From contig CAVNZM010000013.1 in the NCBI GenBank assembly GCA_963693365.1, positions 4,824,140-4,888,139 on the forward strand: DNA of 64,000 nt. Direction: 5' to 3'. Source of the DNA: Amoebidium appalachense (lineage: Eukaryota; Protista; Ichthyosporea). The translations under genes and the position numbers were made by a program. Numbering within the stretch: the first letter of the stretch is position 1; every line of letters begins with the position of its first letter. This document shows positions 425 through 52,872 of the stretch, piece by piece. Under the pieces are notes generated by a model. The model was not told the origin of the DNA. It saw only the letters and a list, made by a program, of their open reading frames with translations, and made no database searches.

Positions 425-13560
<13,136 letters not shown>

Positions 13561-14541
13561 TCCCGCTATCCTCGACTGCTCTTGTATTCAACGCATACCA
13601 GGCTGGACTGCTCACGTAAAGTAGGCTAACTTCTAAAAGTGATTCCACGAGTAGACGTCATGCAGTAGCAAAAGTTTTTTTTTCTACACGACAAGGCAAC
13701 AACGTTGTCAATATGAAGAAAACTTGCCAGAATAAAAACAGGGAAAACGCTATTCGGTGTCATAGAAAAAGTGAACGTAACGTGATCAAGTGTGCTGAAT
13801 CCAGAAAAATGTGGCAAGGCTTTTCTGACTTGCTCCCACGCATTCATTCGAATCGAGCCAGAAAATCGGGTTTGGTTCGAAAAGCCGTTTACCAACATTC
13901 TACATATGCATAGGATTCCTTCACTGCAATAGGCGCATGGATGCAGTCTGTATGTATCCATTCCAAATCAAAAGCCTTGAAGTTCTATAATTTTCTCTAT
14001 GGCTTCATTTAGTATTTATGGAACCTTTTGTTGGTGGAAGCTGTTTACGACACTCGAATCAGCCGATGCATGGTGGCCCCAAGTGCTCTCGATTCGAACC
14101 GGAATGTGATCACTGACCATTCCTGGAGAGTCATGGTGATGTCATCAAGCCATATGTGATTGGTTCCTTTTGCAACGTTTGCGATAACGCGATATGATTT
14201 GGCCTCTTGAGGAATTTGCCTAATCACAGCCATCTAATTGGTGGTGATGGCATAATGGCGCGAGTTTTGAAAATCCGATGTCGATGCTGGTTGATGGATG
14301 ATCATTCATCACATCATGCATTCATGCATTTGTACACGTGTTCCGGCTTCGTTGGTGTGCGTGTGCAGTGAAGTGAACTTGCGTGTGCGTGTGTGTTTGT
14401 GTGTGTTTGTGTGTTTGTGTGTGTGTGTGTGTGTGTGCGTGTGTGTGTGCGTGCGTGTGTACACCGTGTGCGCGCGTGGATGTGTGTACATGTGTACATG
14501 TGTGTCCGTCTAGATCTGTGTGCGTGCGTGCGTGCCATCTG

Positions 14542-14580
<39 letters not shown>

Positions 14581-14622
14581 ATGCAGGCGTACGTTTACAC
14601 GTTGGTGTGTGTGTGTGTGTGT

Positions 14623-14660
<38 letters not shown>

Positions 14661-14671
14661 ACATGTACATG

Positions 14672-14706
<35 letters not shown>

Positions 14707-14736
14707 ATGCATGTGTGTGCGTGTGTGTGAACGTGT

Positions 14737-14792
<56 letters not shown>

Positions 14793-14999
14793 TTTGTACG
14801 TGTGTGTGTGTGTGTGTGGGTGGGTGGGTGGGTGGGTGGGTGGGTGGGTGGGTGGGTCACGGTGTGCGTGTGTATGCTCAGCCTAGGCCTTCCGGCGCCA
14901 GCATCAGCCGCAGCCTCCTCATCATTTCTTCTTTATTTTTTATGTTTCCTTCTTCTTCTCTTCGTCTTTCTTTCTTTCTTTTTTTTTTTGTGTGTGTGT

Positions 15000-15035
<36 letters not shown>

Positions 15036-15208
15036 AGGTGGTGGTGGTGGTGGTGGTGGTGGTGGGGGGGGGGGGGGGGACATGTACAGAGTTACCAGGG
15101 ACGTGTAGAACTTCAGCCAATGAAACAGCGTCGAGAATTTGAATGGAGAGGAGGGGGGATGCAGGCGGGGCGCCCCGGAAGGAGGGGGGGGGGGGGGGGG
15201 GGGGCCGG

Positions 15209-15265
<57 letters not shown>

Positions 15266-16219
15266 TCGGATCTACTCGGATGTGTGTGTACACACATGTG
15301 TGTGTGTGTGTGTTTGGGAGGCGGGGGTTACACACACACCAGAGGTTAATTATGTAGTAGGTGCCTGCAGCGCGCGCTGGTACATTATATCGGAATTCGA
15401 AAACAGGATGGGACCATAAAAAGTCATGTCGTGCACGGTCGGTCACTCACGTGCCCGTGCACCTCAGTGCACGTGAGCTCATGAATTAATTTTATCACAC
15501 ACATATTCTTCGTCATGAAAATTATGCACTGTTATTACATTTTGTGTACACACCCTTCGTACTCACAGTCAAGTTGAGCAGAATCTGATATATTTAGCAC
15601 CGTGACAGTCTGAGATAGGTGATATCTATTACGATCTATCAACCGTAACGTGAATTTGTGACCTCCCTTAAGCCGCGCATCACTACGTAACACTCATGAT
15701 CAGGAGGCATAAGGTGTGAGTTCAACCCCAGTGATAGATATTGATATTCAGAATCTCAAGAAATTAAAACAAAGTGTCACATGGTTCATGAAATGACATG
15801 ACCAATCTGGAGATATATGGATGGCCTAATTACACAGTGTCATAGTGTATATACTCAACCTCCTTCGGCGTGCGGAATGCAATATATGTATGCAATAGCC
15901 AGGATGACGTCATTCGTATGTTCGTTCCAAATTCAAATGCTGTTAACAAGCACCAGACAATGGCGAAGTCTTATAAATTGCAGTAATTTCTTGCGGTGTT
16001 CGTTTCTCCCCCTTAAACCCCCCCTCTCCTCCCCACCCCCCTCCCCCCTCCCCCCTTCTCCGAAGACCGAGGACCACACACACATACATGCACACACACT
16101 ACCTATGCAGCCACCCATCTACCCACACAATGAACTACCCAACTCCATACACCTCAAAGCTAACATGTTTCATTACAGCAACCACGTGACACCTCCGCCT
16201 ACGATATATGCCAAGCCAT

Positions 16220-27146
<10,927 letters not shown>

Positions 27147-27693: not shown

Positions 27694-27958
27694 CGCGCAC
27701 GTGCGTGTTTGGGGAGGGGGGGGGGGGGGGGGAGGAGGAGAAGGGGGAGAGGGGTGGGATCATTTCTTTGACCAACTACACCTTAAGAAAGGGAAATGGG
27801 AGGGAGAACAGTAGAAGGGCAGATCATACAGGCAAGCATACAGGCAGAAAGGAAAGAAAGGAAGACGAAGAGATAAGAAGAAAGGGGGAAATGTGTATGC
27901 ATAGAAGAACGAAAAACGACATTCTGGAAAATAGAAAGAGGAAAGAAAAAAAAAAAGA

Positions 27959-28031
27959 CGACCCTGGCAGGACTCGAACCTACAATCTTCTGCTCCGAAG
28001 GCAGACGCCTTATCCATTAGGCCACAGGGCC
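27959..28031 (-). tRNA. tRNA-Arg, anticodon TCG
   Basis: GGCCCTGTGGCCTAATGGATAAGGCGTCTGCCTTCGGAGCAGAAGATTGTAGGTTCGAGTCCTGCCAGGGTCG: 73 nt, acceptor stem, anticodon stem TCTGC/GCAGA with loop CTTCGGA, GTTCGA T-loop, followed by an oligo-T Pol III terminator. Confidence 0.96.
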
Positions 28032-28304
28032 ACCTGTCTCCCTCTCCAAATCGTCCAATACGATCATCCACATCCATATTATCCGCTCACTTGAAATGCA
28101 TGAGAATAGAACATGACTTTAGGGTGCCTACTCAACGTGTCCTATTTGCGTGCAGCTCACACCGTGCTTTTGGTGATGATGTGTATATATATGTGTATGC
28201 TAGGGGCAAGACAGACATTCGGACATTTGTATGTGCCTGTGTGGTTAGCGTGGGTGTGGGCGAATGTGTGGGTTTGTTGGTAGTGGCGGTTACATGCCTG
28301 TGTC

Positions 28305-28581: not shown

Positions 28582-33749
<5,168 letters not shown>

Positions 33750-34906
33750 CTGGAGAAAAGGGTGCCCTGAATTCTTTCTATGCCAACAACCCGGGGAGCC
33801 AGTTCTACACCACAAAACCTTCCTAATTCATAAACTCGCTTCTAAGGACCAAAAAATCCTCCCATCTCTGAAGCTCCTTTTTCATCTGACTAATGGGTGG
33901 TGCCGCAATCTTTGAACCTCCGAGGCCACAAAACTGAAACTTTGAAACCTCGATTGCTCTAGACTCTCATTGTCACCTCTGTCAGTCTGTGACAGTCACC
34001 TGATGACGTCTTACAAGCAAAATCCCCAATGGCCATTCGCTGCCAGCACATCAAAGTATCATAGTCGAACATTTTTTTTTTGCACTTTTACCATATCTGG
34101 TTATTTGCTTGGGGAATTTGCGTAACGAGGTTACATGAGCCTAAGTTTTATTGGCTACGCGCGCACCAGCATGACGTCACAATTGACATCAGACACTGTG
34201 TGACCGAAACCACGGCCCTCTGAAAACGGATTTCTCGAGGACCACGCCGAAACGCAGCGTTGCTGCGAACAGCTGCCAGGCTGCAGGTGAACGAGCCCAA
34301 CCCACACAAGAGGGTCGGCCCAAACTACCCCGAAAATACAACCTTCCTCTACCAACCCATGCAACCTGCAGGGCCAGCGCTTTCCATCTGTCACTACCCA
34401 GCAGATGTCAAGTTGCCAGCATCAAAGCCCCTCTCAGCACCTTAAGTCCCCCGGCCAATTGCAGCACGAGCACAGCCACCCATGGATGCACATGGAGGTA
34501 CGTAGCTGGCCCGGGCTCCACCTAAACGCTAGACGACCACAAGCAGCCACGAGCAAACGCCCTCCCCCTCCCGAACTATGTACAGCCCCCACGTGTTTTG
34601 AAAGAAACCAGTCAGCTGCCACCTGTACACACCATAGCGCAAATCCAACCTCACAGCCTTCCCCCCTTCCCCCCCCCTCCCCCGGGGCGACCTACCGTAC
34701 CCTCTCTAAATGTATACTGTCTAGCTTCCAACACACATTCAAATACAAGAACCCACAACCCCATCCACCCAAACCTGACCCCTTTCAAACAAGTAATGAG
34801 CTAGCACGGCTGCATTGGCATGTCGCCTATAAAACAGCAGCAAAGATTCTAATGGAAAATTCCCGCGGAAACAGCCCATATATATATAATCAATATGTAT
34901 AAGCCT

Positions 34907-35359
34907 TTGGACTGCTCCCCCTAGTTGAACAGTTTGGGGGGAAAGCCGAAGGCTCTAAATTCGGATATTCGGGATTTGGTTGTAAGGTTTTACGGGTCGG
35001 GCCGAAGGCCTTAACGGGCCGCAGGCCCGCCTATTGGGCCGCCAGGCCCGGGGCCCCGGGGACCGGGGGCCTCCCCACCCACGCGGGCCACCCCCCGGCC
35101 CGGCCCGGCCCGCGGGGGCACGGGGAGTAGAGCTCTACTCCCCGTGCCCCCGCGGGCCGGGCCGGGCCGGGGGGTGGCCCGCGTGGGTGGGGAGGCCCCC
35201 GGTCCCCGGGGCCCCGGGCCTGGCGGCCCAATAGGGCGGGCCTGCGGCCCGTTAAGGCCTTCGGCCCGACCCGTAAAACCTTACAACCAAATCCCGAATA
35301 TCCGAATTTAGAGCCTTCGGCTTTCCCCCCAAACTGTTCAACTAGGGGGAGCAGTCCAA
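34907..35359. repeat. 453-bp spacer-less palindrome, putative opened hairpin terminus
   Basis: Centre gagtagAG|CTctactc at 35132/35133. Arms of 226 and 227 bp are reverse complements except for one extra G near 35234. Confidence 0.97.
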
Positions 35360-35490
35360 TATTGCTTCGCTCTTTCCAGTAGATCACTTCCAAATATCTA
35401 TCACGTGATGACCTTCCCGATTGTTCTTCCAATGACATTTTCTATCACTATCGACAGTTCTCCAATATTAGAACAGAAAACGGTTTATAC

Positions 35491-35582
35491 CCACATGGCC
35501 AGATGGCCAGATCAAATCCAGTCTGTGAGCAGGGGGGGGGATCCACCTGAAGTCAAAACAATCTGGCCATCTGGCCATGTGG
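35491..35582. repeat. 22-bp perfect inverted repeat with a 48-bp spacer
   Basis: ccacatggccagatggccagat (35491-35512) and atctggccatctggccatgtgg (35561-35582). Confidence 0.95.
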
Positions 35583-35615
35583 CCATAGAATAGATTAGTA
35601 TGTAAGGCACTGGCT

Positions 35616-37035
35616 GCCACCACTGGGGGGCGTGGTTCCGGCAGCAGGGGGGGAGGGGAGGCACACGTGCACAGGAGGCCGGGGAGAGTGGGGGAAGCAT
35701 GTTGGAATGCCACCACTGGGGGGCGTGGTTCCGGCAGCAGGGGGGGAGGGGAGGCACACGTGCACAGGAGGCCGGGGAGAGTGGGGGAAGCATGTTGGAA
35801 TGCCACCACTGGGGGGCGTGGTTCCGGCAGCAGGGGGGGAGGGGAGGCACACGTGCACAGGAGGCCGGGGAGAGTGGGGGAAGCATGTTGGAATGCCACC
35901 ACTGGGGGGCGTGGTTCCGGCAGCAGGGGGGAGGGGAGGCACACGTGCACAGGAGGCCGGGGAGAGTGGGGGAAGCATGTTGGAATGCCACCACTGGGGG
36001 GCGTGGTTCCGGCAGCAGGGGGGAGGGGAGGCACACGTGCAGGGGGGCTGGGGAGAGTGGGGGAAGCATGTTGGAATGCCACCACTGGGGGGCGTGGTTC
36101 CGGCAGCAGGGGGGGAGGGGAGGCACACGTGCAGGGGGGCTGGGGAGAGTGGGGGAAGCATGTTGGAATGCCACCACTGGGGGGCGTGGTTCCGGCAGCA
36201 GGGGGGGAGGGGAGGCACACGTGCACAGGAGGCCGGGGAGAGTGGGGGAAGCATGTTGGAATGCCACCACTGGGGGGCGTGGTTCCGGCAGCAGGGGGGA
36301 GGGGAGGCACACGTGCACAGGAGGCCGGGGAGAGTGGGGGAAGCATGTTGGAATGCCACCACTGGGGGGCGTGGTTCCGGCAGCAGGGGGGGAGGGGGAG
36401 GCACACGTGCAGGGGGGGCTGGGGAGGCACACGTGCACAGGAGGCCGGGGAGAGTGGGGGAAGCATGTTGGAATGCCACCACTGGGGGGCGTGGTTCCGG
36501 CAGCAGGGGGGAGGGGAGGCACACGTGCAGGGGGGCTGGGGGAGTGGGGGAAGCATGGCACCGCTGGGGAATGGCACCACTGGGGGCGTGGTTCCGGCAG
36601 GCCAGCAAGAGGGCGGATATGTGAGGCACACATGCTGGCGAGGAGGGCAAGGAGGGCGAGACTGGCGAGCCACCCACAGTGAGAAAGTATTATGTATGCA
36701 TAGAGCATGTTGCCTGTGCAGCAGGTAGATGTGCATGAGGCACCAGAGTGGTGCAAGTTTCTGGTGGCTCTGTTTGACTAATAAAGGCATATGCTGCAAC
36801 CACTGGGGGCCTGGTTCCGGGAGGAGGGGGGGCTGGGGGAGGGGGAGGCTGGGGGGCCGGGGGGGGAAGCATGGCACCGCTGGGGGCGTGGTTCCGGCAG
36901 CAGGGGGGGCTGGGGGGAGGGGGAGGCTGGGGGGCCGGGGGGGCGGAGGAGGCGGGGGGGCCGGGGGGCGGAGGAGGGGGGGCTGGGGGCCTCACAGTTG
37001 GTTCCGGGGGGCACGGGGGGGGGGGCTGGGGGGGG
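35616..37035. repeat. Subterminal G-rich tandem array, ~93-bp unit, about 10 copies plus a degenerate tail
   Basis: gccaccactggggggcgtggttccggcagcagg recurs at 35616, 35709, 35802 and onward; each unit contains CACGTG. Confidence 0.95.
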
Positions 37036-37128
37036 GGCAAAAAGTCTCTCTCTCCTATGCACACATATACTAAGTGTGAGGCCGGGAGGCCAAATATAAA
37101 TGCTAAGTGTGAGGCCGGGGGATGCAAA

Positions 37129-37161
<33 letters not shown>

Positions 37162-37874
37162 CAGGCCAAATATATATGCTAAGTGTGTAATGCTAAGTGT
37201 GAGGCCGGGGGGCCAAATATATATGCCAAGTGTGTGATGCTAAGTGTGAGGCCGGGGGGCCAAATATATATGCTAAGTGTGTAATGCTAAGTGTGAGGCC
37301 GGGAGGCCAAATATATATGCTAAGTGTGTAATGCTAAGTGTGAGGCCGGGGGGCCAAATATATATGCCAAGTGTGTAATGCTAAGTGTGAGGCCGGGGGG
37401 CCAAATATATATGCTGTGTGAGGCCGGGGGATGCAAAAAGCTCTCTCTCTCTCTCTCTCGGCAGGCCAAATAATGCTAAGTGTGTAATGCTAAGTGTGAG
37501 GCCGGGGGGCCAAATATAAATGCTAAGTGTGTAATGCTAAGTGTGAGGCCGGGAGGCCAAATATATATGCTAAGTGTGTAATGCTAAGTGTGAGGCCGGG
37601 GGGCCAAATATATATGCCAAGTGTGTAATGCTAAGTGTGAGGCCGGGGGGCCAAATATATATGCTGTGTGAGGCCGGGGGATGCAAAAAGTCTCTCTCTC
37701 TCTCTCTCTCGGCAGGCCAAATAATGCTAAGTGTGTAATGCTAAGTGTGAGGCCGGGGGGCCAAATATATATGCTGTGTGAGGCCGGGGGATGCAAAAAG
37801 TCTCTCTCTCTCTCTCTCGGCAGGCCAAATAATGCTAAGTGTGTAATGCTAAGTGTGAGGCCGGGGGATGCAAA

Positions 37875-37919
<45 letters not shown>

Positions 37920-37997
37920 CAGGCCAAATATATATGCTAAGTGTGAGGCCGGGAGGCCAAATATAAATGCTAAGTGTGAGGCCGGGGGATGCAAAAA

Positions 37998-38033
<36 letters not shown>

Positions 38034-38222
38034 CAGGGAGGGGGGAGGGGGGAGGGGGGCAAATAAATGCATCCGTGCATGCAAATAATGCTAGAGACCG
38101 GGAGGGGGGAGGGGGGAGGGGGGCAAATAAATGCATCCGTGCATGCAAATAATGCTTAGTGTGAGGCTGGTGAATCCGGGGGCCAAGTAAATGCATCCGT
38201 GTGAGGCCGGGGGATGCAAAAA

Positions 38223-38260
<38 letters not shown>

Positions 38261-38338
38261 CAGGCCAAATATATATGCTAAGTGTGAGGCCGGGAGGCCA
38301 AATATAAATGCTAAGTGTGAGGCCGGGGGATGCAAAAA

Positions 38339-38376
<38 letters not shown>

Positions 38377-38560
38377 CAGGGAGGGGGGAGGGGGGAGGGG
38401 GCAAATAAATGCATCCGTGCATGCAAATAATGCTAGAGACCGGGAGGGGGGAGGGGGGGGGAGGGGGCAAATAAATGCATCCGTGCATGCAAATAATGCT
38501 TAGTGTGAGGCTGGTGAATCTGGGGGCCAAGTAAATGCATCCGTGTGAGGCCGGGGGCAA
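37036..38560. repeat. Subterminal compound array built on tgctaagtgtgaggccggg, ggccaaatatata and (CT)n-cggcagg modules
   Basis: Many copies of gtgtgaggccggg interleaved with variable (CT)n tracts. Confidence 0.95.
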
Positions 38561-38816
38561 CACGTGCTTATATATTTATTTGTATTTCCACTGAGCTTTA
38601 CAAAATAAATACATCCGTGGTGGCACACGTGTCTTCTTAATGTAATATATTTATCTGTATTTCCACTGCATAAGTTTTACATAGTATCGAAATACATCCG
38701 TTGTGGCTCCCCTCTCCCAAAAAATACACTCGGTTGTTTGTAACCCCCCCCCCCCCAACAATACACCCAGTTTGCTTGCAAAAACTATACCCCAAACACC
38801 CCCCACCCACCACACA

Positions 38817-39527
38817 CTACTTGCTGGGCGCGTGTCTCTTGGGGTCATGCTCGACATCGTCACTGCCTCTCTTACCACCCTTCGGGGTGGTGGTGCGAGG
38901 GGTACCCAAAAGCGCGGGGGGGGGTCCCGGAACGACACGGCCGGGAGGGGCAGGGGGCTTTGTTGAGCCGGCCGGGAGGGGCAGGGGGCTTTGTTGAGCC
39001 GGCCGGGGGGGAGGGGGCTTGCGGTGGGTCTGGTCGGAGGGGTTGTACACAGAACTCATCGGGTTTTCGTCGATACATGCAGACAGCCTGTCACGCTGAA
39101 GCCTGTACTCTTCAGCCGTGGCCCTCACGCTCGCCAACTCGACCTCCCTTGCCTGAAGAGCATCCCGAGTCTCCTTCAGCTGCTGCACAAGCCCCGCTAC
39201 ATTACCGTACCCACGGGACATACGATGGAGCAATTCTTGTGCTTCATTCGCACTCGATGCTGCAGACTCTTGTAGAGCCTCGTTCTGGCGTTGCAGAGCT
39301 TCGTTCTGGCGAACAACTTTCCCCGAAACCTTCTCGACGTCGACGGACAACGACTTGAGCTGCTCCTCGACAACATTGACCCGATTGCAAAGCTCGTTCC
39401 ACGTCTCGGGGGTGACATAGACCCGACGGCAAAGCTCGTCCCACATCTCGGGGGTAACACGGAAGGTCTTTTCCCCCTCACCCCCCTCCCCACCCCCTTG
39501 ACTATGCGGAGACTTGGGCTCTGACAT
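38817..39527 (-). CDS. Hypothetical coiled-coil protein, 236 aa
   Basis: Intronless ATG ORF with a duplicated VTPExWxELCxRV motif, a heptad-rich middle and a Pro-rich tail. Confidence 0.7.
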   Translation of the reverse strand: MSEPKSPHSQGGGEGGEGEKTFRVTPEMWDELCRRVYVTPETWNELCNRVNVVEEQLKSLSVDVEKVSGKVVRQNEALQRQNEALQESAASSANEAQELLHRMSRGYGNVAGLVQQLKETRDALQAREVELASVRATAEEYRLQRDRLSACIDENPMSSVYNPSDQTHRKPPPPRPAQQSPLPLPAGSTKPPAPPGRVVPGPPPALLGTPRTTTPKGGKRGSDDVEHDPKRHAPSK

Positions 39528-40778
39528 GACTAGTAACGCTCAAAAACAAAAGAAAGGATTTTCGAGGTGAGAGTGATCGAAATGAGAAACCCCAATCGGT
39601 AACGCTTAAGGTTAAGAACAAAAGGGTCAAGAACAAAAGAAAGGAATTTTTGCCTCGAGTAAGGTTTAGACAGCGTGAAAGGATTTGATCGACAAATGAC
39701 CCCCAAATCAGTTAGACTGCCTTTTTATAGCCCCAGCTCCAACAGACATCTTACTCGCGGATCGAAATGGGGGATCGATTCGGGACGATTGTCCAAATTA
39801 TGAGTACGTGAATTGGCTTGACTGCTTTTTTTAGGTCTTTTTTTACTTGTAATGTTTTTGGCTCAACATGGAAAATAAATTCATAGGGAACAGCGCGAAC
39901 AGGTACAACTGCATCTTGTTTTGGGTAGCTCTGGCATGGGCTTTCTAGAAGATGCGCATGCCCTTGGATTGGTTGGGGCATTTTCACAATTTTAATGCCC
40001 CGGTGAAAAGGATTCTTAAAAAACTCATCACAATCAATGCAAAATTCAAGTGTTTTTCTACATAATTTTATTTATTTCATTCAAGTCTTGTGTACAACGA
40101 ACAAAAAACATCAACATGGATGCCATTGCCGCGGGTCATTCGAATATCACCCCTTTTTGCCCCCCCTCCGGTGAGATGGCTTTTGAATTATTCCGTTTTT
40201 TTTAACGCCCACTGTCAAAACGATTATAAAAACCCTCTTTTATCACAATCAAATCTATTAAAATTCAAAATTATACTTCTCTGGATAAGATCATTACAAT
40301 GAAGTATTAATGATTTTGTTTATACACAATATGTACACAGAAGACCCGCGAATTCAGGATCCTTTTGATTGGCTGGACAGCGATTGGGGTCATGTGTCTT
40401 TTTGATTGGTTGGACAGCGATTGAGGTATCTCGTGGATCACGTGAACTTCTGAGAACTGTCTGGAGGGGGGCAAGGCTTTTCAAAGCAAACATCGATGTG
40501 CCTGTAACGCAGTGCCTTCTATTGACGCTGTATTAAGATATATTTATGGATAAGTACAGTACACAAAATAAACACATACAATAAAAATAATCTCAAATCT
40601 TCGCATTGTGGTAGCCTAACTGCAACGGGTATCGGTGGCCGAGACAGTGATTGAAATACATATATGTGGGTACACATTTTTGCCCTACTTCGATTACCAA
40701 TGCTCGAATTATATGACCAAGCGTGCACTTGAACAAACCCGTCGGTTCTACAGTCTCTCACTTCCGGCAACAGTCTGT

Positions 40779-40980
40779 CACGTCTTAGCGCTACACATTT
40801 TTAGCCACAGCAAAACTTCCTTTTACCCCGAAAGATTTTCTACTACACGTCTTAGCGCTACACATTTTTAGCCACAGCAAAACTTCCTTTTACCCCGAAA
40901 GATTTTCTACTACACGTCTTAGCGCTACACATTTTTAGCCACAGCAAAACTTCCTTTTACCCCGACAGATTTTCTACTAC
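40779..40980. repeat. 3 x 67-bp tandem repeat ending ~50 bp upstream of the KDM4-like start codon
   Basis: cgtcttagcgctacacatttttagccacagc at 40781, 40848 and 40915. Confidence 0.95.
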
Positions 40981-41030
40981 TCGCTTGCACACAAACCACA
41001 ATTCGCTCACGCACAAACCATTATATTAAC

Positions 41031-41764
41031 ATGGCCGGTTCCGATTTTCAAGAATGGCTCGGCACAACACAAGCCTACCCATATGCTAAACGTGCAACTT
41101 TTCATTTTTCCACCTCTTTCGATGCACACAACGTTTTTGCACATGGGCGGGTCCACGCTATAGAACGCATCGTTTTGGTGGGAAACAAAACTGCCGATTA
41201 TCCTGTCAGGCTCTCCATTCTACACAAGGACGAGCAACACGAAATTCTTATGTTTTTCAAAAAAGGCAAGAAAGGAGAGCAGTCAGGCTGGAAAATTAGG
41301 GAGGAAAAGTTCATAGCCGGAAAGATACCAGGAAACGTAATGAAAATTCTGAGACAGGGGGGGAAAGACTGGGAAGTTTACGATTTGGGGGCATATGCCG
41401 ACATACACAGAAAGACAATCGACTCCGGGTTCACGTTTGCTGCGGGCCCTGAATACAACGAGGATACCCCTACCCTTGCCAAGTTACTCTACCTTCTCAG
41501 AACATGCCCAATACCCGAAAAGGGGGATTCCCTTTCCATAAACGACGACCCAACACACAGACTCGAACTCAGTCACACAATTCGAACAAACATGACGGAC
41601 CGTGATTGCGTTCTGTTTTTTGGCGGGGTTCGTTATATCAGACTCCCTTCTCTCCAGAAGGCTGCCACCTTGTGGGCTGCCAAACGTCTTCGTCTTAACA
41701 ATTTCTCGGCCAGATTTGCGGCGGTAGCAAGCCCACTATCGAGGCTGGCGCCGCCTGCAGGTTG

Positions 41765-41799
<35 letters not shown>

Positions 41800-44611
41800 A
41801 CACACACACACATGCACACACACACACACACACACATGCACACACAAAAGGCATTCGGGCACACACATGCACACACACAAAGGCATTCGGGCACACACAT
41901 GCACACACAAAAAGGCATTCGGGCACACACATGCACACACACAAAGGCATTCGGTGACACACATGCACACACAAAAAGGCATTCGGGCACACACATGCAC
42001 ACACACAAAGGCATTCGGGCATACACATGCACACACACAAAGGCATTCGGTGACACACATGCACACACAAAAAGGCATTCGGGCACACACATGCACACAC
42101 ACAAAGGCATTCGGTGACACACATGCACACACAAAAAGGCATTCGGGCACACACATGCACACACACAAAGGCATTCGGGCATACACATGCACACACACAA
42201 AGGCATTCGGTGACACACATGCACACACAAAAAGGCATTCGGGCACACACATGCACACACACAAAGGCATTCGGTGACACACATGCACACACAAAAAGGC
42301 ATTCGGGCACACACATGCACACACACAAAGGCATTCGGGCACACACATGCACACACAAAAAGGCATTCGGGCACACACATGCACACACACAAAGGCATTC
42401 GGGCACACACATGCACACACAAAAAGGCATTCGGGCACACACATGCACACACACAAAGGCATTCGGGCACACACATGCACACACAAAAAGGCATTCGGGC
42501 ACACACATGCACACACACAAAGGCATTCGGTGACACACATGCACACACAAAAAGGCATTCGGGCACACACATGCACACACACAAAGGCATTCGGGCACAC
42601 ACATGCACACACAAAAAGGCATTCGGTGACACACATGCACACACACAAAGGCATTCGGGCACACACATGCACACACACAAAGGCATTCGGGCACACACAT
42701 GCACACACACAAAGGCATTCGGGCACACACATGCACACACACAAAGGCATTCGGGCACACACATGCACACACAAAAAGGCATTCGGTGACACACATGCAC
42801 ACACAAAAAGGCATTCGGGAACACACATGCACACACACAAAGGCATTCGGTGACACACATGCACACACAAAAAGGCATTCGGGCACACACATGCACACAC
42901 ACAAAGGCATTCGGGCACACACATGCACACACAAAAAGGCATTCGGGCACACACATGCACACACACAAAGGCATTCGGGCACACACATGCACACACAAAA
43001 AGGCATTCGGGCACACACATGCACACACACAAAGGCATTCGGGCACACACATGCACACACAAAAAGGCATTCGGGCACACACATGCACACACACAAAGGC
43101 ATTCGGTGACACACATGCACACACAAAAAGGCATTCGGGCACACACATGCACACACACAAAGGCATTCGGGCACACACATGCACACACAAAAAGGCATTC
43201 GGTGACACACATGCACACACACAAAGGCATTCGGGCACACACATGCACACACACAAAGGCATTCGGGCACACACATGCACACACACAAAGGCATTCGGGC
43301 ACACACATGCACACACACAAAGGCATTCGGGCACACACATGCACACACAAAAAGGCATTCGGTGACACACATGCACACACAAAAAGGCATTCGGGAACAC
43401 ACATGCACACACACAAAGGCATTCGGGCACACACATGCACACACAAAAAGGCATTCGGGCACACACATGCACACACACAAAGGCATTCGGGCACACACAT
43501 GCACACACAAAAAGGCATTCGGGCACACACATGCACACACACAACTCCCAATATTTACACACACCACCCACCACACACAGAGCAGGAAGAGAAGTTCCCA
43601 GTCGAACCCCAATCGCCCCGGTCCACGACACCCATCATCTCCAGACGTATTCCAACCTTTCGCTTGACACCTGACATATTGGAGAGGTACACACTGGAGC
43701 AGTTCCTGTACAAAATCGGCAAGTATGACGACGTGAGGAGGGCGGGGGCTGCGAGGCTAGTCCTACCCGAGGAGGTGAAGGAGGCACTGGCAGCAGCATC
43801 CCAGGAGCTGGATTTGCCCGGCAGACCCCACAACGTACAAAATCTGCAGGCAACAGAAAACAAAGACGTATATGCTCTGACGCATGAACTGGACCACGGT
43901 AACCTACCGGCCCCACAGGTGTGTTACTTGAGTTTTGGATGGAGAGGAAGCCTCACACCTAGCAATGTTTGCATTTACTTGGCCTGCCGAGAGACACTTT
44001 TTGCACGCCCCGGCCTCACACTTAGCAATGTTTGCATGAATTTACTTGGCTTGTTTTTGCACGCCCCGGCCTCACACTTAGCAATGTTTGCGTGATTTTA
44101 AAACTTGGCCTGCCGAGAGACACTTTCTGCACGCCCCGGCCTCGCATGCCCTGACTAAACATTATACTAACATTGCAACCCGTGAATTAGGGCAATGCAT
44201 CGTTGTCCGAGAGAGAGTTTTGGGACATGCTGGACGAGCATTGGCCTGAAAGCCGTCCCGAGGAACGGAATCAGTTGGGGAAACCTGTGTTTGAATTCCA
44301 CTACGCCAACGAGCACAGCATTCCACCTGGCACACGCACCCCCAGCGAGGTAAGCGGGCGAAGTTGCTCTGCACACCATTTCAGCACTTGCAACCTCCCC
44401 TTTGTGACCCCCAATCCCGCACATTGCATCGTTTGTATAGTTGCACCATGCCTCCGGACCGTAGCTATGTAGCTAAGTGCATGCCCATTCAGGTGGTCAG
44501 CGAGACCTACAAATGGATGCCCAATTTAAGGAAATTGGACTCTGTTCTTCATCGCATCCATGAATACCAGCACCTCGACGGGATATGCATTCCCATGTTT
44601 TACAAGTACTA

Positions 44612-44642
<31 letters not shown>

Positions 44643-45884
44643 AAAAAATCCTCACAAGAATTCAGAATAGTTCACTTGCCCGCACAGATTTCCCGTCCTC
44701 ACTCACCCTCCCGACCTCTAATTTTGAATTGACTACCCCATATCCACACACAAGAATTCAGAATAGTTCACTTGCCCGCACAGATTTCCCGTCCTCACTC
44801 ACCCTCCCGACCTCTAATTTTGAATTGACTACCCCATATCCACACAAGAATTCAGAATAGTTCACTTGCCCGCACAGATTTCCCGTCCTCACTCACCCTC
44901 CCGACCTCTAATCGAATCGACTTTGTTTCAATCTTTTGCAGGTCCCGCTATCTTGGTTTGTTCGGCCCACATCCAGAGGATGCTGCCTTCGGCAGTCTCA
45001 ACCTAATGGTTGACGGTCCGCACGGAAAACACTGGTATTCGATTAGCCCTGGCAGTCGAGATCGTGTCGAAAGGGTCCTTCGGGATATCCATCCGGATGC
45101 AAAGTCCAAGAAGCCGTGCCCTGGGTTCATGATGCATAAGGTAAGCAGCCAAATTAAGCAAAAGACACGGCACAAAGGCATTCGGGCACACACATGCACA
45201 CACACGACACAAAGGCATTCGGGCACACACATGCACACACACGGCACAAAGGCATTCGGGCACACACATGCACCACACACGGCACAAAGGCATTCGGGCA
45301 CACACATGCACACACACGGCACAAAGGCATTCGGGCACACACATGCACTTAAGCAAACACACGGCACAAAGGCATCGGGCACACACATGAACACCCAAAG
45401 GCATTCGGGCACACACATGCACACTATCATGTGCTTACACCCGGGGTGGGACAGAATATTTTTGTGAACCCGAGGCTGTTTGGAAAAAGGGGCATCCACG
45501 TCTACCATGCAGAGCAAAGGCCGGGCGACCTTATTTACACCCTGCCTGGGGCCTACCACATGGGGTTCGCCTCTGGCGCCCCACCTTGCCGAGGCGGTCA
45601 ACTTTGCAACTCGTGATTGGTTGGAACATTTGAACGGGAAGGTACCCCCGTTTTGCACATGCCCCGATCGCCAAAACGAGACATTCGAGGTACAACCCCC
45701 ACACCCCCCCCCCCAAAAAAAAAAAAAAAAAAAACGAGACAATTCGTTGGTCTGAAGGTAGTTGAAACAATCTATTGGTATCAAAGTAGTTACACACACA
45801 CCATTACACCCCCGGTATCAAAGTAGTTTGGGGGATTAACTATTAAGCACCTAATCTATCGGTCTAACAGTGTAACACACACGC

Positions 45885-47591: not shown

Positions 47592-47762
47592 GTTACTCGG
47601 TGCATGATATAATGCGGTGGTGGGGGTGCGCGAGAGGTGATGGGGGGGGGGGACTTTTCTCCGATTGCGGAGTGGGGTTTCCAATCCGGAGGGGGGGGGG
47701 GGGGGGGGGGGAGAAGGGAAGGGGAGAGGGTTTTCCCGATTTTGGGAGGATGTAACGTTGAT

Positions 47763-48585
47763 CAAAATCGGACTTGTGTTGTGGCACTCCGAATAATGGA
47801 ATAAAACGTTGACCGAATTCGGATATGTGTTGTGGCACTCCGAATAATGGAATAAAACGTTGACCGAATTCGGACTTGTATTAATTGCTACCGAGCACGC
47901 CGAAAAATGAGATGCAACTTTGCCCAAATTCGGACTTGTATTAATTGCTACCGAGCACGCCGAAAAATGAGATGCAACTCTGACCGAATTCGGACTTGTA
48001 TTAATTGCTACCGAGCACGCCGAAAAATGAGATGCAACTTTGACCAAATTCGGACTTGTATTAATTGCTACCGAGCACGCCGAAAAATGAGATGCAACTT
48101 TGCCCAAATTCGGACTTGTATTAATTGCTACCGAGCACGCCGAAAAATTGACCGAATTCGGACTTGTATTAATTGCTACCGAGCACGCCGAAAAATGAGA
48201 TGCAACTTTGACCAAATTCGGACTTGTATTAATTGCTACCGAGCACGCCGAAAAATGAGATGCAACTCTGACCGAATTCGGACTTGTATTAATTGCTACC
48301 GAGCACGCCGAAATATGAGATGCAACTCTGACCGAATTCGGACTTGTATTAATTGCTCCCGAGCACGCCGAATAATGGAATAAAACGTTGACCGAATTCG
48401 GACTTGTATTAATTGCTACCGAGCACGCCGAAAAATGAGATGCAACTTTGACCAAATTCGGACTTGTATTAATTGCTACCGAGCACGCCGAATAATGGAA
48501 TAAAACGTTGACCGAATTCGGACTTGTATTAATTGCTCCCGAGCACTCCGAATAATGGAATAAAACGTTGACCGAATTACTTGTA
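47763..48585. repeat. 60-bp modular tandem array with ccgaattcgg palindromes (about 14 units)
   Basis: Constant part aattcggacttgtattaattgctaccgagcacgccgaa plus one of two ~22-bp linker types. Confidence 0.95.
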
Positions 48586-48617: not shown

Positions 48618-50216
48618 CTACTGCGCTTGCTCCTGACTGCCCTTCTTGAACACGCTCATGACGAGGTCCCTTGTCAAGTCGTCTTCCATGTGCTCCCTCG
48701 CCATCTCCAGCATGGCCGCAGCAAAAGTCACAAAGTCCACACCGAACAGCTCGCGCTCGACGTTCTTGTGTTTGAGTGCTGTGTGCAGGCACTTCTCCGC
48801 AAGCGCCAGCTGCTCGGACGGCACGGGCAGCGCAAAGAGCAGGCGCTTGTTGGGTCCCACATGCCACGTACCGGCCTGCTTCATGCGGCCCTTCACGTCC
48901 TTCAGACTGAGTCCGATTTTCAGGCAGGGCGGGTCGCCATACTCGGACACGAACACGTAGATGCCGGACTGCTGCTTGGTGCACACGTGGTTGGTGACCC
49001 GGCGCAGCTCCTCGCTGGCATCCTCGTATTCGGGTGGGATGTGGTCCTGCTTGATGCTGTCTGTTGCCTGGAGCTCCAAAAGCCGGCACTGCGCCTCGAG
49101 TTTCAGGCGCTCCTCGCGAATCACACCTGCGCGCTTGTCACACAGAGCGCCTTCCTCGCGCATCATCATGATCTCCGTGTACTGTGCAGATTCGGCGATG
49201 CGCGCCTCCTTGTACAGACTCAGTGCAGTTTCCATCTCGGCCTGGTTGGTCATGAACTGGGTGATGTCTCCGAGCTTCAGTCTCTTGGGCTCCCTCTCGG
49301 GTGTCCTGTCGGCATCCATTTCTGCTTGCACACTGTCACGCATGAAAGCGTTGGGTCCTGACGGGTTGGCCGCTGCCGTGGCACGGTTGCGCTCGATGTC
49401 CTCCACGAGTGTTTCGTCTCCACCTTCCAGGCGCGCTATATCTTGAGCCCACTTGTCGATGATCGCGGAACCATAGCGTGAGCCAGATGCAATTTTTAGG
49501 GTTAGCCTACCCAGCGACTTAGCAGGCACACCAGGTGATGCCTTCCCTCCGACTTGAAATTGACAGTTGGTCACGTTAAGAGAATCTTTGAGTTGAGGGT
49601 TATTCTGCAAGAGACGGCGCAGATAGCAACCCGCTGCATTCCTGTCCAAACCACGCACCAGCATGGTATAGTCCACCAAGCTTGCCATCTTCACACCGTC
49701 GACCTCACATACTCGAATGGCATAGTCGCCAATGCCAATACATTCGCCTTTTTCAGCGACAATCTCGTCTGCGGTCATTACGACTTCGTTGTGTTCAGTT
49801 TCCATGGTTTGCGAGACTGAGGGGTTGTGATGTGTGTTGGGTCTTTTTATACCCTTGGGTTGACTGTCGGGGTTCACCTTGTTGGACATCAGCCGCGTGA
49901 TAAAATTGATGCTGCTCATGCGAGCATGGTGCGCGCGCTTGCCGGGAAGAAGGAAGATGATCTCGAGGAGGTCACGGAACGAGGCCACTGGGGTGAGCCT
50001 CCCCACTCCATTGATGCGAAGTTGGTAAATGCGGCTTACCAAAGGCTTTTTGGATTCATTTCCACCCTTTTTCATCTCATGCCAAGCCATCTTGGCAGCA
50101 TCCATTCCAAATGCTCTGTCCGGTAGCCATGCTGTGTCAGACTGACCCCAGTTGGCTGTGTGTGCTCCTTTTATACCTGCGCACATCAGTCGTGCCGAGA
50201 ATGCTGGCAGCAACAA
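48618..50216 (-). CDS. NCLDV-type DNA-binding protein with a C-terminal T5orf172 (GIY-YIG-like) domain
   Basis: TPVASFRDLLEIIFLLPGKRA and ARLEGGDETLVEDIERN motifs, a coiled coil, then GIYVF..LKIGLS..VKGRMKQ..AEKCLH..RELF. True start codon uncertain. Confidence 0.8.
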   Translation of the reverse strand: MLLPAFSARLMCAGIKGAHTANWGQSDTAWLPDRAFGMDAAKMAWHEMKKGGNESKKPLVSRIYQLRINGVGRLTPVASFRDLLEIIFLLPGKRAHHARMSSINFITRLMSNKVNPDSQPKGIKRPNTHHNPSVSQTMETEHNEVVMTADEIVAEKGECIGIGDYAIRVCEVDGVKMASLVDYTMLVRGLDRNAAGCYLRRLLQNNPQLKDSLNVTNCQFQVGGKASPGVPAKSLGRLTLKIASGSRYGSAIIDKWAQDIARLEGGDETLVEDIERNRATAAANPSGPNAFMRDSVQAEMDADRTPEREPKRLKLGDITQFMTNQAEMETALSLYKEARIAESAQYTEIMMMREEGALCDKRAGVIREERLKLEAQCRLLELQATDSIKQDHIPPEYEDASEELRRVTNHVCTKQQSGIYVFVSEYGDPPCLKIGLSLKDVKGRMKQAGTWHVGPNKRLLFALPVPSEQLALAEKCLHTALKHKNVERELFGVDFVTFAAAMLEMAREHMEDDLTRDLVMSVFKKGSQEQAQ

Positions 50217-51456: not shown

Positions 51457-52872
51457 TTATTGTTTGGTTTCTGCGTCCGTTGGATTGGTTTTCGCTTTAA
51501 ACGGAGCCAATAGCCTCTCCATATCTTCCATCGAAACTAGCCTGCTGAACAGCACGCCAAGGTCTTGCGTCACCTCGTGCCAATCATAGAACAGGTACCC
51601 CATGCGGATGCGCCCGTCCTTGAACAGCGCGACGTAGTCTATGTCTCGCACATGTCTGATGGCGACCGTGAGTGCCTCGAGCCTCTGCTTCATTGGAGTT
51701 CTCTGTGTTTTGCTGTCGACCTTGAATCCGTGTGGGTTGAATCGAATAAACATGGTCGGCACTTCGTGCGCAGATGCCTGGTTGAACATCCGTGCAATCT
51801 CGCACGTGGTGTCATAAGCACGGTGTTGCTCTTCGTCCACCTCGACCACAAGTACAAATGTCCCAAAGTCGTAGTAGAGATCAGGACGAGTGCGCTCCCC
51901 ACAATCATTTGGCACGATTTTGTCGTGGCTGGTGGGTGGACCTATGGAACGCGATATGTGACGTAACACCTTTATTTCAGGACGCGCCTCAGACCACTTA
52001 GCTCGGCGTATGGATTGTGGGTCGCAAGTGGCGCATAGGTTTCCCCTCTTGTGTACTTGTGTCAGCGTGCACGCCACGCAGAAGTTGCGCAGGTCACACA
52101 GCCTGCAGGTACGCCTATGCTTACCGTGTTCACAAACTCCCTTTCCACCACATGCTTTGCAATGATACCTCCGTTTACCGTGGTCGCAAACACTGGATCC
52201 GCCGCACAGATTACAATCGAATTTCAGTTTGCCATGTTTGCAAACACCCAATCCGCCACACGCTTTGCACGCATACCTTCGTTTACCGTGTTCGCAAATC
52301 CTGGATCCGCCACACAGATTACAATCGCATTTCAGTTTGCCGTGTCCGCAAAAACCGGATCCGCCGCACGCCTTGCACTGAGACCTTTGTCTGCCGTGTT
52401 CGCAAATCCTGGATCCGCCACACAGATTACAATCGCATTTCAGTTTGCCGTGTCCGCAAAAACCGGATCCGCCGCACGCCTTGCACTGAGACCTTTGTCT
52501 GCCGTGTTCGCAAAAACTGGATCCGCCGCACGCCTTGCACCGAGACCTTTGTCTGCCGTGTTCGCAAACACCCAATCCGCCACAAGCCTTGCATGAGTAC
52601 CTTTGTCTGCCGTGGTCGCAAACACCGAGTCCGCCGCACGCCTTGCACCGAGACCTTTGTCTGCCGTGTTCGCAAAAACCGGATCTGCCGCACGCCTTGC
52701 ACCGAGACCTTTGTCTGCCGTGTTCGCAAAAACCGGGTCCGCCGCACGCCTTGCACCGGTCCCTCCGTTTACCGTGTTCACATTCAGGATAACATTTTTT
52801 CGATTTCATTTCCTTTATTGTGTCGACAGAGTTCATTCCCATTATAAGTGACAGAAAATATTGCACATACAC
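51457..52872 (-). CDS. Tandem Zn-binding repeat (CEHGRQRSxCKACGG, about 13 copies) protein with a C-terminal PD-(D/E)XK/Vsr-like endonuclease domain
   Basis: 18-aa Cys/His repeats followed by RPDLYYD..VVEVDEEQH..IRFNP. Confidence 0.88.
   Translation of the reverse strand: MYVQYFLSLIMGMNSVDTIKEMKSKKCYPECEHGKRRDRCKACGGPGFCEHGRQRSRCKACGRSGFCEHGRQRSRCKACGGLGVCDHGRQRYSCKACGGLGVCEHGRQRSRCKACGGSSFCEHGRQRSQCKACGGSGFCGHGKLKCDCNLCGGSRICEHGRQRSQCKACGGSGFCGHGKLKCDCNLCGGSRICEHGKRRYACKACGGLGVCKHGKLKFDCNLCGGSSVCDHGKRRYHCKACGGKGVCEHGKHRRTCRLCDLRNFCVACTLTQVHKRGNLCATCDPQSIRRAKWSEARPEIKVLRHISRSIGPPTSHDKIVPNDCGERTRPDLYYDFGTFVLVVEVDEEQHRAYDTTCEIARMFNQASAHEVPTMFIRFNPHGFKVDSKTQRTPMKQRLEALTVAIRHVRDIDYVALFKDGRIRMGYLFYDWHEVTQDLGVLFSRLVSMEDMERLLAPFKAKTNPTDAETKQ

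Follow-up and report, generated by a model that had tools for sequence, protein, structure and literature searches.

A GC-rich terminal palindrome at the edge of a multi-copy, giant-virus-like insertion in Amoebidium appalachense: a possible captured hairpin telomere

The question addressed here is by what route giant viruses enter the chromosomes of protists when they have no known integration system. Several large viruses have genome ends that are closed on themselves. The TIR-ended genomes of pox-, asfar- and chloroviruses are described as having hairpins (PMC11814242), and a title in the same source describes the cloned vaccinia hairpin as an imperfect palindrome. The ends of kaumoebavirus are reported to be incompletely paired flip/flop loops and are likened to those of the poxviruses (PMC7909422). 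When a hairpin end is replicated, the product is a head-to-head mirror junction (PMC9111995, PMC13236599). Clandestinovirus, a relative of the viruses found in Amoebidium, is described as having a linear genome (PMC8383183).

Insertions like the one described here are known from Amoebidium itself. Their integration has been called apparently stochastic, and the insertions were contrasted with adintoviruses, which have kept their terminal repeats (PMC11244446). The Amoebidium insertions are reported to be enriched in recombinase and integrase domains, and 39% of them (52) carry a JmjC gene (PMC11244446). The main text of that paper makes no mention of palindromes, hairpins or inverted repeats, and the readable text of its two supplementary files, some pages of which are pictures, makes none of palindromes or inverted sequence. 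Insertions in Acanthamoeba are described as having no obvious TIRs (PMC12210455). Palindromes are known from the endogenous virophages and related elements of Halocafeteria seosinensis, where they measure 52 nt and lie within TIRs that adjoin TSDs; the elements are small, encode capsids and carry RVE integrases (bioRxiv 10.64898/2026.07.28.741278).

The window analyzed here is a stretch of 64,000 nucleotides of the Amoebidium appalachense genome, and all positions refer to it. Its left part (1–34906) is host DNA, which includes exons of a 6-phosphofructo-2-kinase. Microsatellites make up 16.8% of this part compared with 1.9% of 35360–64000, and the CpG o/e is 0.48 compared with 0.81. The exon of a host gene lies about 1 kb from the junction: a contig of run X9 links 33662 to sequence at 32104–32133, with canonical GT/AG at both sites of the 33662/32133 join. 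X9 carries its DNA label only by guess, and because its contig makes this join across canonical GT/AG, it behaves as RNA, the join marking an exon of the host gene. This first exon (33662–33934, minus strand) is transcribed away from the insertion. A tRNA-Arg(TCG) gene is found at 27957–28032 on the minus strand, apparently in intronic host DNA, and three host copies of 165–200 bp, 97–100% identical to each other (28815–29018, 29712–29914 and 30172–30336), are perhaps duplicated exons.

Host DNA at 34906 is followed directly by a palindrome of 453 nt, made from a left arm of 226 nt (34907–35132), recognized by its mirror symmetry and by junction contigs, and a right arm of 227 nt (35133–35359) that runs into the element. 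The symmetry axis lies between 35132 and 35133 (GTAGAG/CTCTAC) with zero spacer, and the putative hairpin tip spans 35121–35144. Pairing is perfect over the innermost 103 bp out from the axis, and the sole mismatch of the arms out to 34907 and 35359 is a 1-nt indel, GGG in place of the expected GG, near 35233–35235. Beyond these limits, the mirror symmetry breaks off abruptly. An assembly error may account for the indel: at position 34660, the window is one C shorter than both X1 and X2, the two runs used below, a difference in a homopolymer. In 200 shuffles of the region 34401–35800, the best perfect half-length was 9 (mean 5.2). Within 120 nt of the axis, 86% of the bases are G or C, compared with 51% for the outer arm.

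The palindrome is a real feature. A preliminary description made from the sequence had reported a spacer-less, GC-rich palindrome set exactly between an AT-rich host end and the virus. The arm lengths, the zero spacer and the GC-rich core all stand, while its perfection is not strict, given the 1-nt indel. The boundary is borne out as well, since microsatellites, CpG o/e and contig depth all switch at the palindrome and only the right arm enters the element. So is the AT-rich host end: A and T make up 80% of the flank's final 30 nt, which places this stretch in the top 1.1% of host-side 30-mers. Microhomology at the junction is not above chance, as a match of at least 5 nt is found in 113 of 1160 host 30-mers, and a join driven by microhomology was rejected on that count.

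Ten stems of 5–7 bp, forming short internal hairpins, were listed inside the arm. A lone right arm folds no better than its shuffles (z −0.76), and Rfam gave no matches across 33400–41000. The 22-mer at the axis had one match among metagenome contigs, in unrelated sequence and judged to be chance, and the 18-mer at the arm end had none among viral contigs. A degenerate repeat straddling the arm end was considered and rejected, as 110 of 500 shuffles were equally good.

X1 and X2 are two samples from two studies, of the years 2024 and 2011, and one of them may be the source of the assembly. In each run, the host flank from 33935 to 34906 belongs to a single contig of 1.5 kb, and these contigs enter the left arm by 15 nt (X1) and 14 nt (X2) with every letter exact. 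The same host-to-arm join in two samples makes it very improbable that the palindrome is an assembly artefact, produced by a fold-back read or by the misjoining of two loci at the axis, and a fold-back at the level of reads would not give differing flanks. A fold-back chimera, which the preliminary description had named as a refutation, is accordingly unlikely. On the side of an artefact, the junction contigs fall below the bridging rule of 31 letters, one run may be what the assembly was made from, and no contig crosses the axis among the 23 of 463 pieces listed.

The depth of the 1.5-kb flank contig was taken as the 1x reference, 107.8 in X1 and 35.5 in X2. Most of the flank bins are at exactly this depth (15 of 20 in X1 and 17 of 20 in X2), and at the arm depth climbs into the thousands. 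Contig depths are approximate: rare paths are dropped, and fragments that form hairpins are possibly depleted from the libraries. Contigs of the exact outer arm are at about ten times the flank depth (9.6x in X1 and 10.5x in X2) and extend for 110 nt without a break in each run, and those of 35362–35443 are at 13.9x and 15.8x. The ratio of interior to arm is thus 1.45 and 1.51, and because the two libraries are so alike, a large library effect is unlikely. Contigs farther into the subterminal segment reach 65x for an exact one (X2, 35414–35481) and 76x for one with 7 differences (X1, a variant of 35453–35527). Around the axis, depth is low, with bin means of 770 and 92, and X1 has a depth of 1432 at 35169, 37 nt off the axis.

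In X2, one contig begins at 35330 and leads, at 10.3x, from the arm end into the interior. Its depth (367) is about that of the exact-arm contig (371), which stops at 35353 because a variant path of 6.6x plus 0.7x merges back at 35324. The arm forms the outermost part of a terminal module that exists in multiple copies, with most of the measured depth entering the same interior. Since most of the arm depth continues into one shared interior, the arm is not a stand-alone MITE. That a free-standing foldback or MITE-like repeat came to lie at the boundary by chance is most improbable, as such an element would have unique flanks on both sides, and the arm end in X2 enters the same interior at 10.3x and 15.8x. 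The arm depth summed in X1, 13,000–25,000 or more than 100 times that of the flank, would fit a repeat of this kind, although these figures are sums over overlapping contigs and not a copy number. The preliminary description had named scattered MITE-like copies as fatal to its reading, and for the near-identical subfamily they are not what is found.

Four very small runs (X12–X15, 1–2 million letters) contain 24–37% of the words of 33500–41700, as expected if part of this region is high-copy. X12 yielded no contigs on 33410–35610, possibly a false negative. No junction of any other locus was seen among the 18 of 64 loose ends listed, and a loose end that X1 and X2 share behind 35363 could represent either a further junction or an interior variant. 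Joints from 34999 to 35157 and from 35108 to 35241 were dropped as evidence, as diverged arms on GC-rich words could yield them. Skips at low depth from 34935 or 34936 to 35345 were also dropped, since a single arm folding on its own C/G runs is sufficient to produce them.

The X2 depths allow a balance to be drawn at the arm end. The input is 371 + 235 + 25, or 17.8x, and the output to the interior is 561, or 15.8x, which leaves about 2x. This surplus includes the present host junction as one. A second solution could permit up to 7.5x of exits, provided that the arm end was skipped by the 5.5x joining at 35362, and left arms of about 222–227 nt would therefore be present at many loci, as made by a fixed cut. 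The balance thus ranges from 2 to 7.5 exits out of about 18, on the rough contig depths of X2.

The upper end of this range, which sets 7.5 exits against 10 interiors, would suit a terminal palindrome of fixed length. An enzyme of the element, such as a DDE integrase or a fixed-site nickase, would open the hairpin and insert both ends, so that most full copies would have a left arm of about 226 nt and a TSD; the free genome would still be hairpin-ended, and integration would be enzymatic. There is precedent for this in the Halocafeteria virophages and PLVs, with palindromes inside TIRs by TSDs and linked to RVE integrases, and in the punuivirus, whose TIRs come with 6-bp TSDs and are also found as relics at other places in the genome. 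The unbroken 110 nt of the exact-arm contigs also mean that no shorter left arm ends there among the exact copies. Yet the simplest balance gives only about 2 exits of 18, the arm depth equals the arm-to-interior depth when it should be double, the published palindromes are 52 nt long and belong to small viruses, and the ORFs scanned across the visible 29 kb include no recognizable integrase. We consider a fixed enzymatic cut unlikely, though it is the alternative to be taken most seriously.

Beyond the right arm is a subterminal multi-copy segment of 255 nt (35360–35614), followed by 3 kb of tandem arrays: a G-rich array with a 92-bp unit in about 9–10 copies (35615–36557) and a set of nested satellite arrays with periods of 47, 110, 250 and 341 bp (37164–38557). 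A motif of the nested arrays recurs inverted at 43989–44083, in an intron of the JmjC gene, and has no match on the host side, which ties the terminal module to the viral genes. The 255-nt segment, with a summed depth of about 28,000 in X1, holds a perfect 22-bp inverted repeat (35491–35512 and 35561–35582) with a 48-nt spacer. The RNA-like run X9 has a 4.4-kb contig, at a depth of 357, that ends in 36 nt matching 35547–35582, so the 35491–35582 motif may also be present at places other than the virus end.

The first ORF of the element (38817–39527, minus strand, 236 aa) has weak matches only, which are probably due to coiled coil. It is followed by a multi-exon, KDM4-like JmjC gene (41031–45690, plus strand) with JmjC exons at 44941–45140 and about 45420–45690, AG/GT exon bounds and repeat-filled introns (Pfam JmjC, E 3e-07). 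For the first JmjC exon, 37 of 38 PDB matches are of the KDM4 family or Rph1 (best E 0.0013), and the second is nearer to plant JMJ and KDM5, on the weak scores of single exons. The frames upstream, from 41031 onwards, appear to belong to the same gene. The one at 41031–41735 (235 aa), possibly its N-terminal exon, had no matches among 1.84 billion representatives. A 32-bp CA-rich unit occurs in 54 copies at 41829–43544, in a presumed intron of this gene, and recurs at 45165–45424. The reading frame shifts at about 45575, either through a real lesion or through an assembly error.

The remaining genes are dense and intron-less, with MYND and C2H2 fingers among them. A T5orf172-domain protein (48618–49847, minus strand; Pfam E 0.006) has Atlas neighbours of which 5 of the 7 taxon-bearing rows are Nucleocytoviricota, which is a lead only. 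A Cys-repeat protein (51457–52842, minus strand) has two homologues, both of which carry the EsV-1-7 cysteine-rich motif, and we assume for it a putative endonuclease role. A DUF5906 primase-associated helicase (56460–58193, minus strand) is recognized with Pfam E 1e-17 and PHROG primase E 3e-33; its homologues are just 22–34% identical and are mostly Prim-Pol/PriCT-type relatives. Searches with the helicase alone detected no relatives; those with an alignment kept 80 of 239 loci, at 25–34% identity. Among the 81 loci compared, the perfect half-length never exceeded 14, and none matched 34907–38600 in DNA. The ORF at 58446–59219 gave a single weak Atlas lead (0.79). Intron-less genes for a Fic-domain protein and a class-III aminotransferase lie at 59339–62434, on the minus strand.

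Thirteen chosen ORFs fill 69% of 46.8–64 kb, and microsatellites make up 0.7% there versus 16.8% on the host side. The ORFs scanned within the visible 29 kb yielded no capsid, polymerase, integrase, resolvase or protelomerase gene. Among the core genes checked (major capsid, A32, VLTF3, PolB and D5), just the DUF5906 helicase was seen, in an element that runs off the window. Exact-sequence lookup of 7 proteins of the window in a protein collection found none of them. Two duplications of 77–78% identity are present: 62789–63061 is a second partial copy of the 3' end of the Cys-repeat gene (51482–51754), and the non-coding stretches 60234–60454 and 62496–62717 flank the aminotransferase gene. 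About 13 copies of a 60-bp unit lie between viral ORFs at 47754–48578.

The reading that we prefer, and that we hold to have an even chance of being right, sees in the palindrome an end of a linear giant-virus genome: a hairpin telomere that was opened or replicated, broke about 226 nt from the axis and was linked to an AT-rich site of the host by end joining. An off-tip nick in a hairpin, followed by extension, yields a mirror copy. In this reading, the free genome would be capped by a closed hairpin, GC-rich and paired throughout, with its tip at the present axis. Either replication through the tip, by way of a head-to-head junction, or an off-tip nick with strand displacement would give a perfect palindrome. 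The molecule would then have broken, or been cut, 226 nt from the axis, and its open end would have been joined to the AT-rich host site by end joining without microhomology. The left arm would be a 226-nt stump of the mirror strand, and its length would vary by locus.

What suggests a truncated mirror is that the symmetry is lost at precisely the point where multi-copy sequence is replaced by DNA at flank depth. The X2 depth that comes into the arm end (17.8x) is also close to that going onward (15.8x). The order of palindrome, satellite arrays and genes resembles the layout of giant-virus terminal repeats, and a JmjC gene with introns among intron-less genes is the mark of the Amoebidium giant-virus insertions. 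Capture at double-strand breaks has a precedent in AAV, which is hairpin-ended and integrates more upon induced double-strand breaks (PMC11607603). Several things weigh against hairpin capture. The axis is perfect, whereas pox/asfar-type hairpins are imperfect; depth at the axis is low, and the tip is only presumed to be common to the copies; the loose ends listed show no junction of another locus; the second solution of the X2 balance would point to a fixed cut; the ORFs scanned gave no capsid, polymerase, resolvase or protelomerase; and the retention of many termini is equally expected from integrase-driven insertion, with recombinase and integrase domains enriched in the Amoebidium insertions.

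Fold-back priming usually leaves a loop, and the palindrome is without one. This makes it doubtful that the left arm arose through a one-off fold-back during host repair, in which an end broken inside the module snapped back on a short palindrome or a hairpin cap, 226 nt were copied and the product was joined to the chromosome. Such an event would be uninformative on the ends of the virus. The arm is rich in the short hairpins that it would need, a balance of about 2 exits and a low axis depth are what it would leave, and some joints hint at diverged near-axis sequence in related copies. The X1 depth at 35169, on the other hand, suggests many copies near the axis, which a random break would not predict, and we rate a one-off fold-back as quite unlikely. 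It is highly improbable that the palindrome was an internal one, serving a circular genome as replication origin or telRL-like linearization site and cut by chance at its edge. Ectocarpus EVEc does have an internal telRL-like site in an inverted repeat, but here host DNA at flank depth starts from the first unpaired base, and the break would have had to hit the arm edge exactly.

Hairpin capture and the fixed enzymatic cut both start from a hairpin-ended free genome, which taken jointly they make probable. The hairpin topology of the free virus and the independence from an integrase are both inferred from the integrated copy. Entry without an integrase draws on hairpin capture and the one-off fold-back together and is weaker than the preliminary description had stated. 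Its captured hairpin telomere survives in part: the mirror symmetry is lost where multi-copy DNA changes to host DNA and the right arm enters the element, while the hairpin-ended free genome is a deduction. Its appeal to pox- or asfar-type ends does not hold up at the tip, since incompletely paired ends would not leave a perfect, zero-spacer axis, and an end of the telomere-resolvase type fits better, although the element could function in a similar way to those viruses. It had also missed that the arm is multi-copy and that terminal palindromes were already published for small protist viruses.

A wider proposal, possible but less likely than hairpin capture at this one locus, is that a family of viruses with fully paired, GC-rich hairpin telomeres enters the chromosome through its hairpins. 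Dozens of insertions would then begin with one module, consisting of the tip, the satellites and the KDM4-like JmjC gene within about 6–10 kb, each with its own stump of mirror arm. The subterminal depth of 65–76x is of the same order as the number of JmjC-bearing insertions (52). If the module heads most insertions, a JmjC gene 6–10 kb from the tip may owe its 39% presence to its position, which offers a positional explanation for the enrichment. Since the module is multi-copy, many junctions can be compared: scattered arm lengths without a TSD would speak for capture by repair, and a fixed arm with a TSD for an enzyme. If a recognizable telomere was indeed kept at the junction, it would reveal the topology of an uncultured virus and be a rare direct trace of both its ends and its entry.

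Of the known systems, the GEVEs of Amoebidium are similar in gene content, with intron-less gene blocks in an intron-rich host and a multi-exon, KDM4-like JmjC gene (PMC11244446). Dense methylation outside CGC/GCG is a further hallmark of that type. The present element shares the gene-dense, intron-poor block and has such a JmjC gene, on weak single-exon scores. It differs from MITEs and foldbacks, which have unrelated DNA flanking both ends, in the interior shared at 10–16x. The punuivirus GEVE of Chlamydomonas reinhardtii has a similar terminal repeat with a satellite array and terminal relics at several loci, but it has defined ACC-GGT ends and 6-bp TSDs (bioRxiv 10.1101/2024.09.03.611062). 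The available text of that preprint makes no mention of palindromes or hairpins, and that of a 2026 punuivirus preprint makes none of palindromes, hairpins or JmjC. The telRL-like site of Ectocarpus EVEc differs in being internal, and integration is proposed to proceed via a tyrosine recombinase at attP (PMC13236599).

With the hairpin-ended Nucleocytoviricota (poxviruses, ASFV, chloroviruses and kaumoebavirus), the locus shares the plan of a TIR capped by a hairpin and the mirror form of concatemer junctions. The junction centre is imperfect in kaumoebavirus and vaccinia, whereas here it is perfect and GC-rich, with 103 bp fully paired from the axis in place of an incompletely paired flip/flop tip. 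In the telomere-resolvase ends of phage N15, Borrelia and Agrobacterium, the replicated junction is an inverted repeat around an axis (PMC9111995), and an inverted repeat around an axis is what is found here. A cognate resolvase gene was not seen among the ORFs scanned, and the element extends beyond the window. Among the papers listed by literature searches, none was seen to describe an end of this kind for an insertion that bears a JmjC gene or comes from Amoebidium; one of the queries was swamped by unrelated papers. A further likeness is to the endogenous virophages and PLV subtype 4 of Halocafeteria seosinensis, which have a palindrome at the junction and a proposed terminal hairpin (bioRxiv 10.64898/2026.07.28.741278). 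Compared with theirs, the palindrome described here is 453 nt long and GC-rich, stands before at least 29 kb of giant-virus-like genes and has a left arm that is possibly variable. The novelty lies in a multi-copy, giant-virus-like end whose terminal palindrome is long, GC-rich and perfectly centred.
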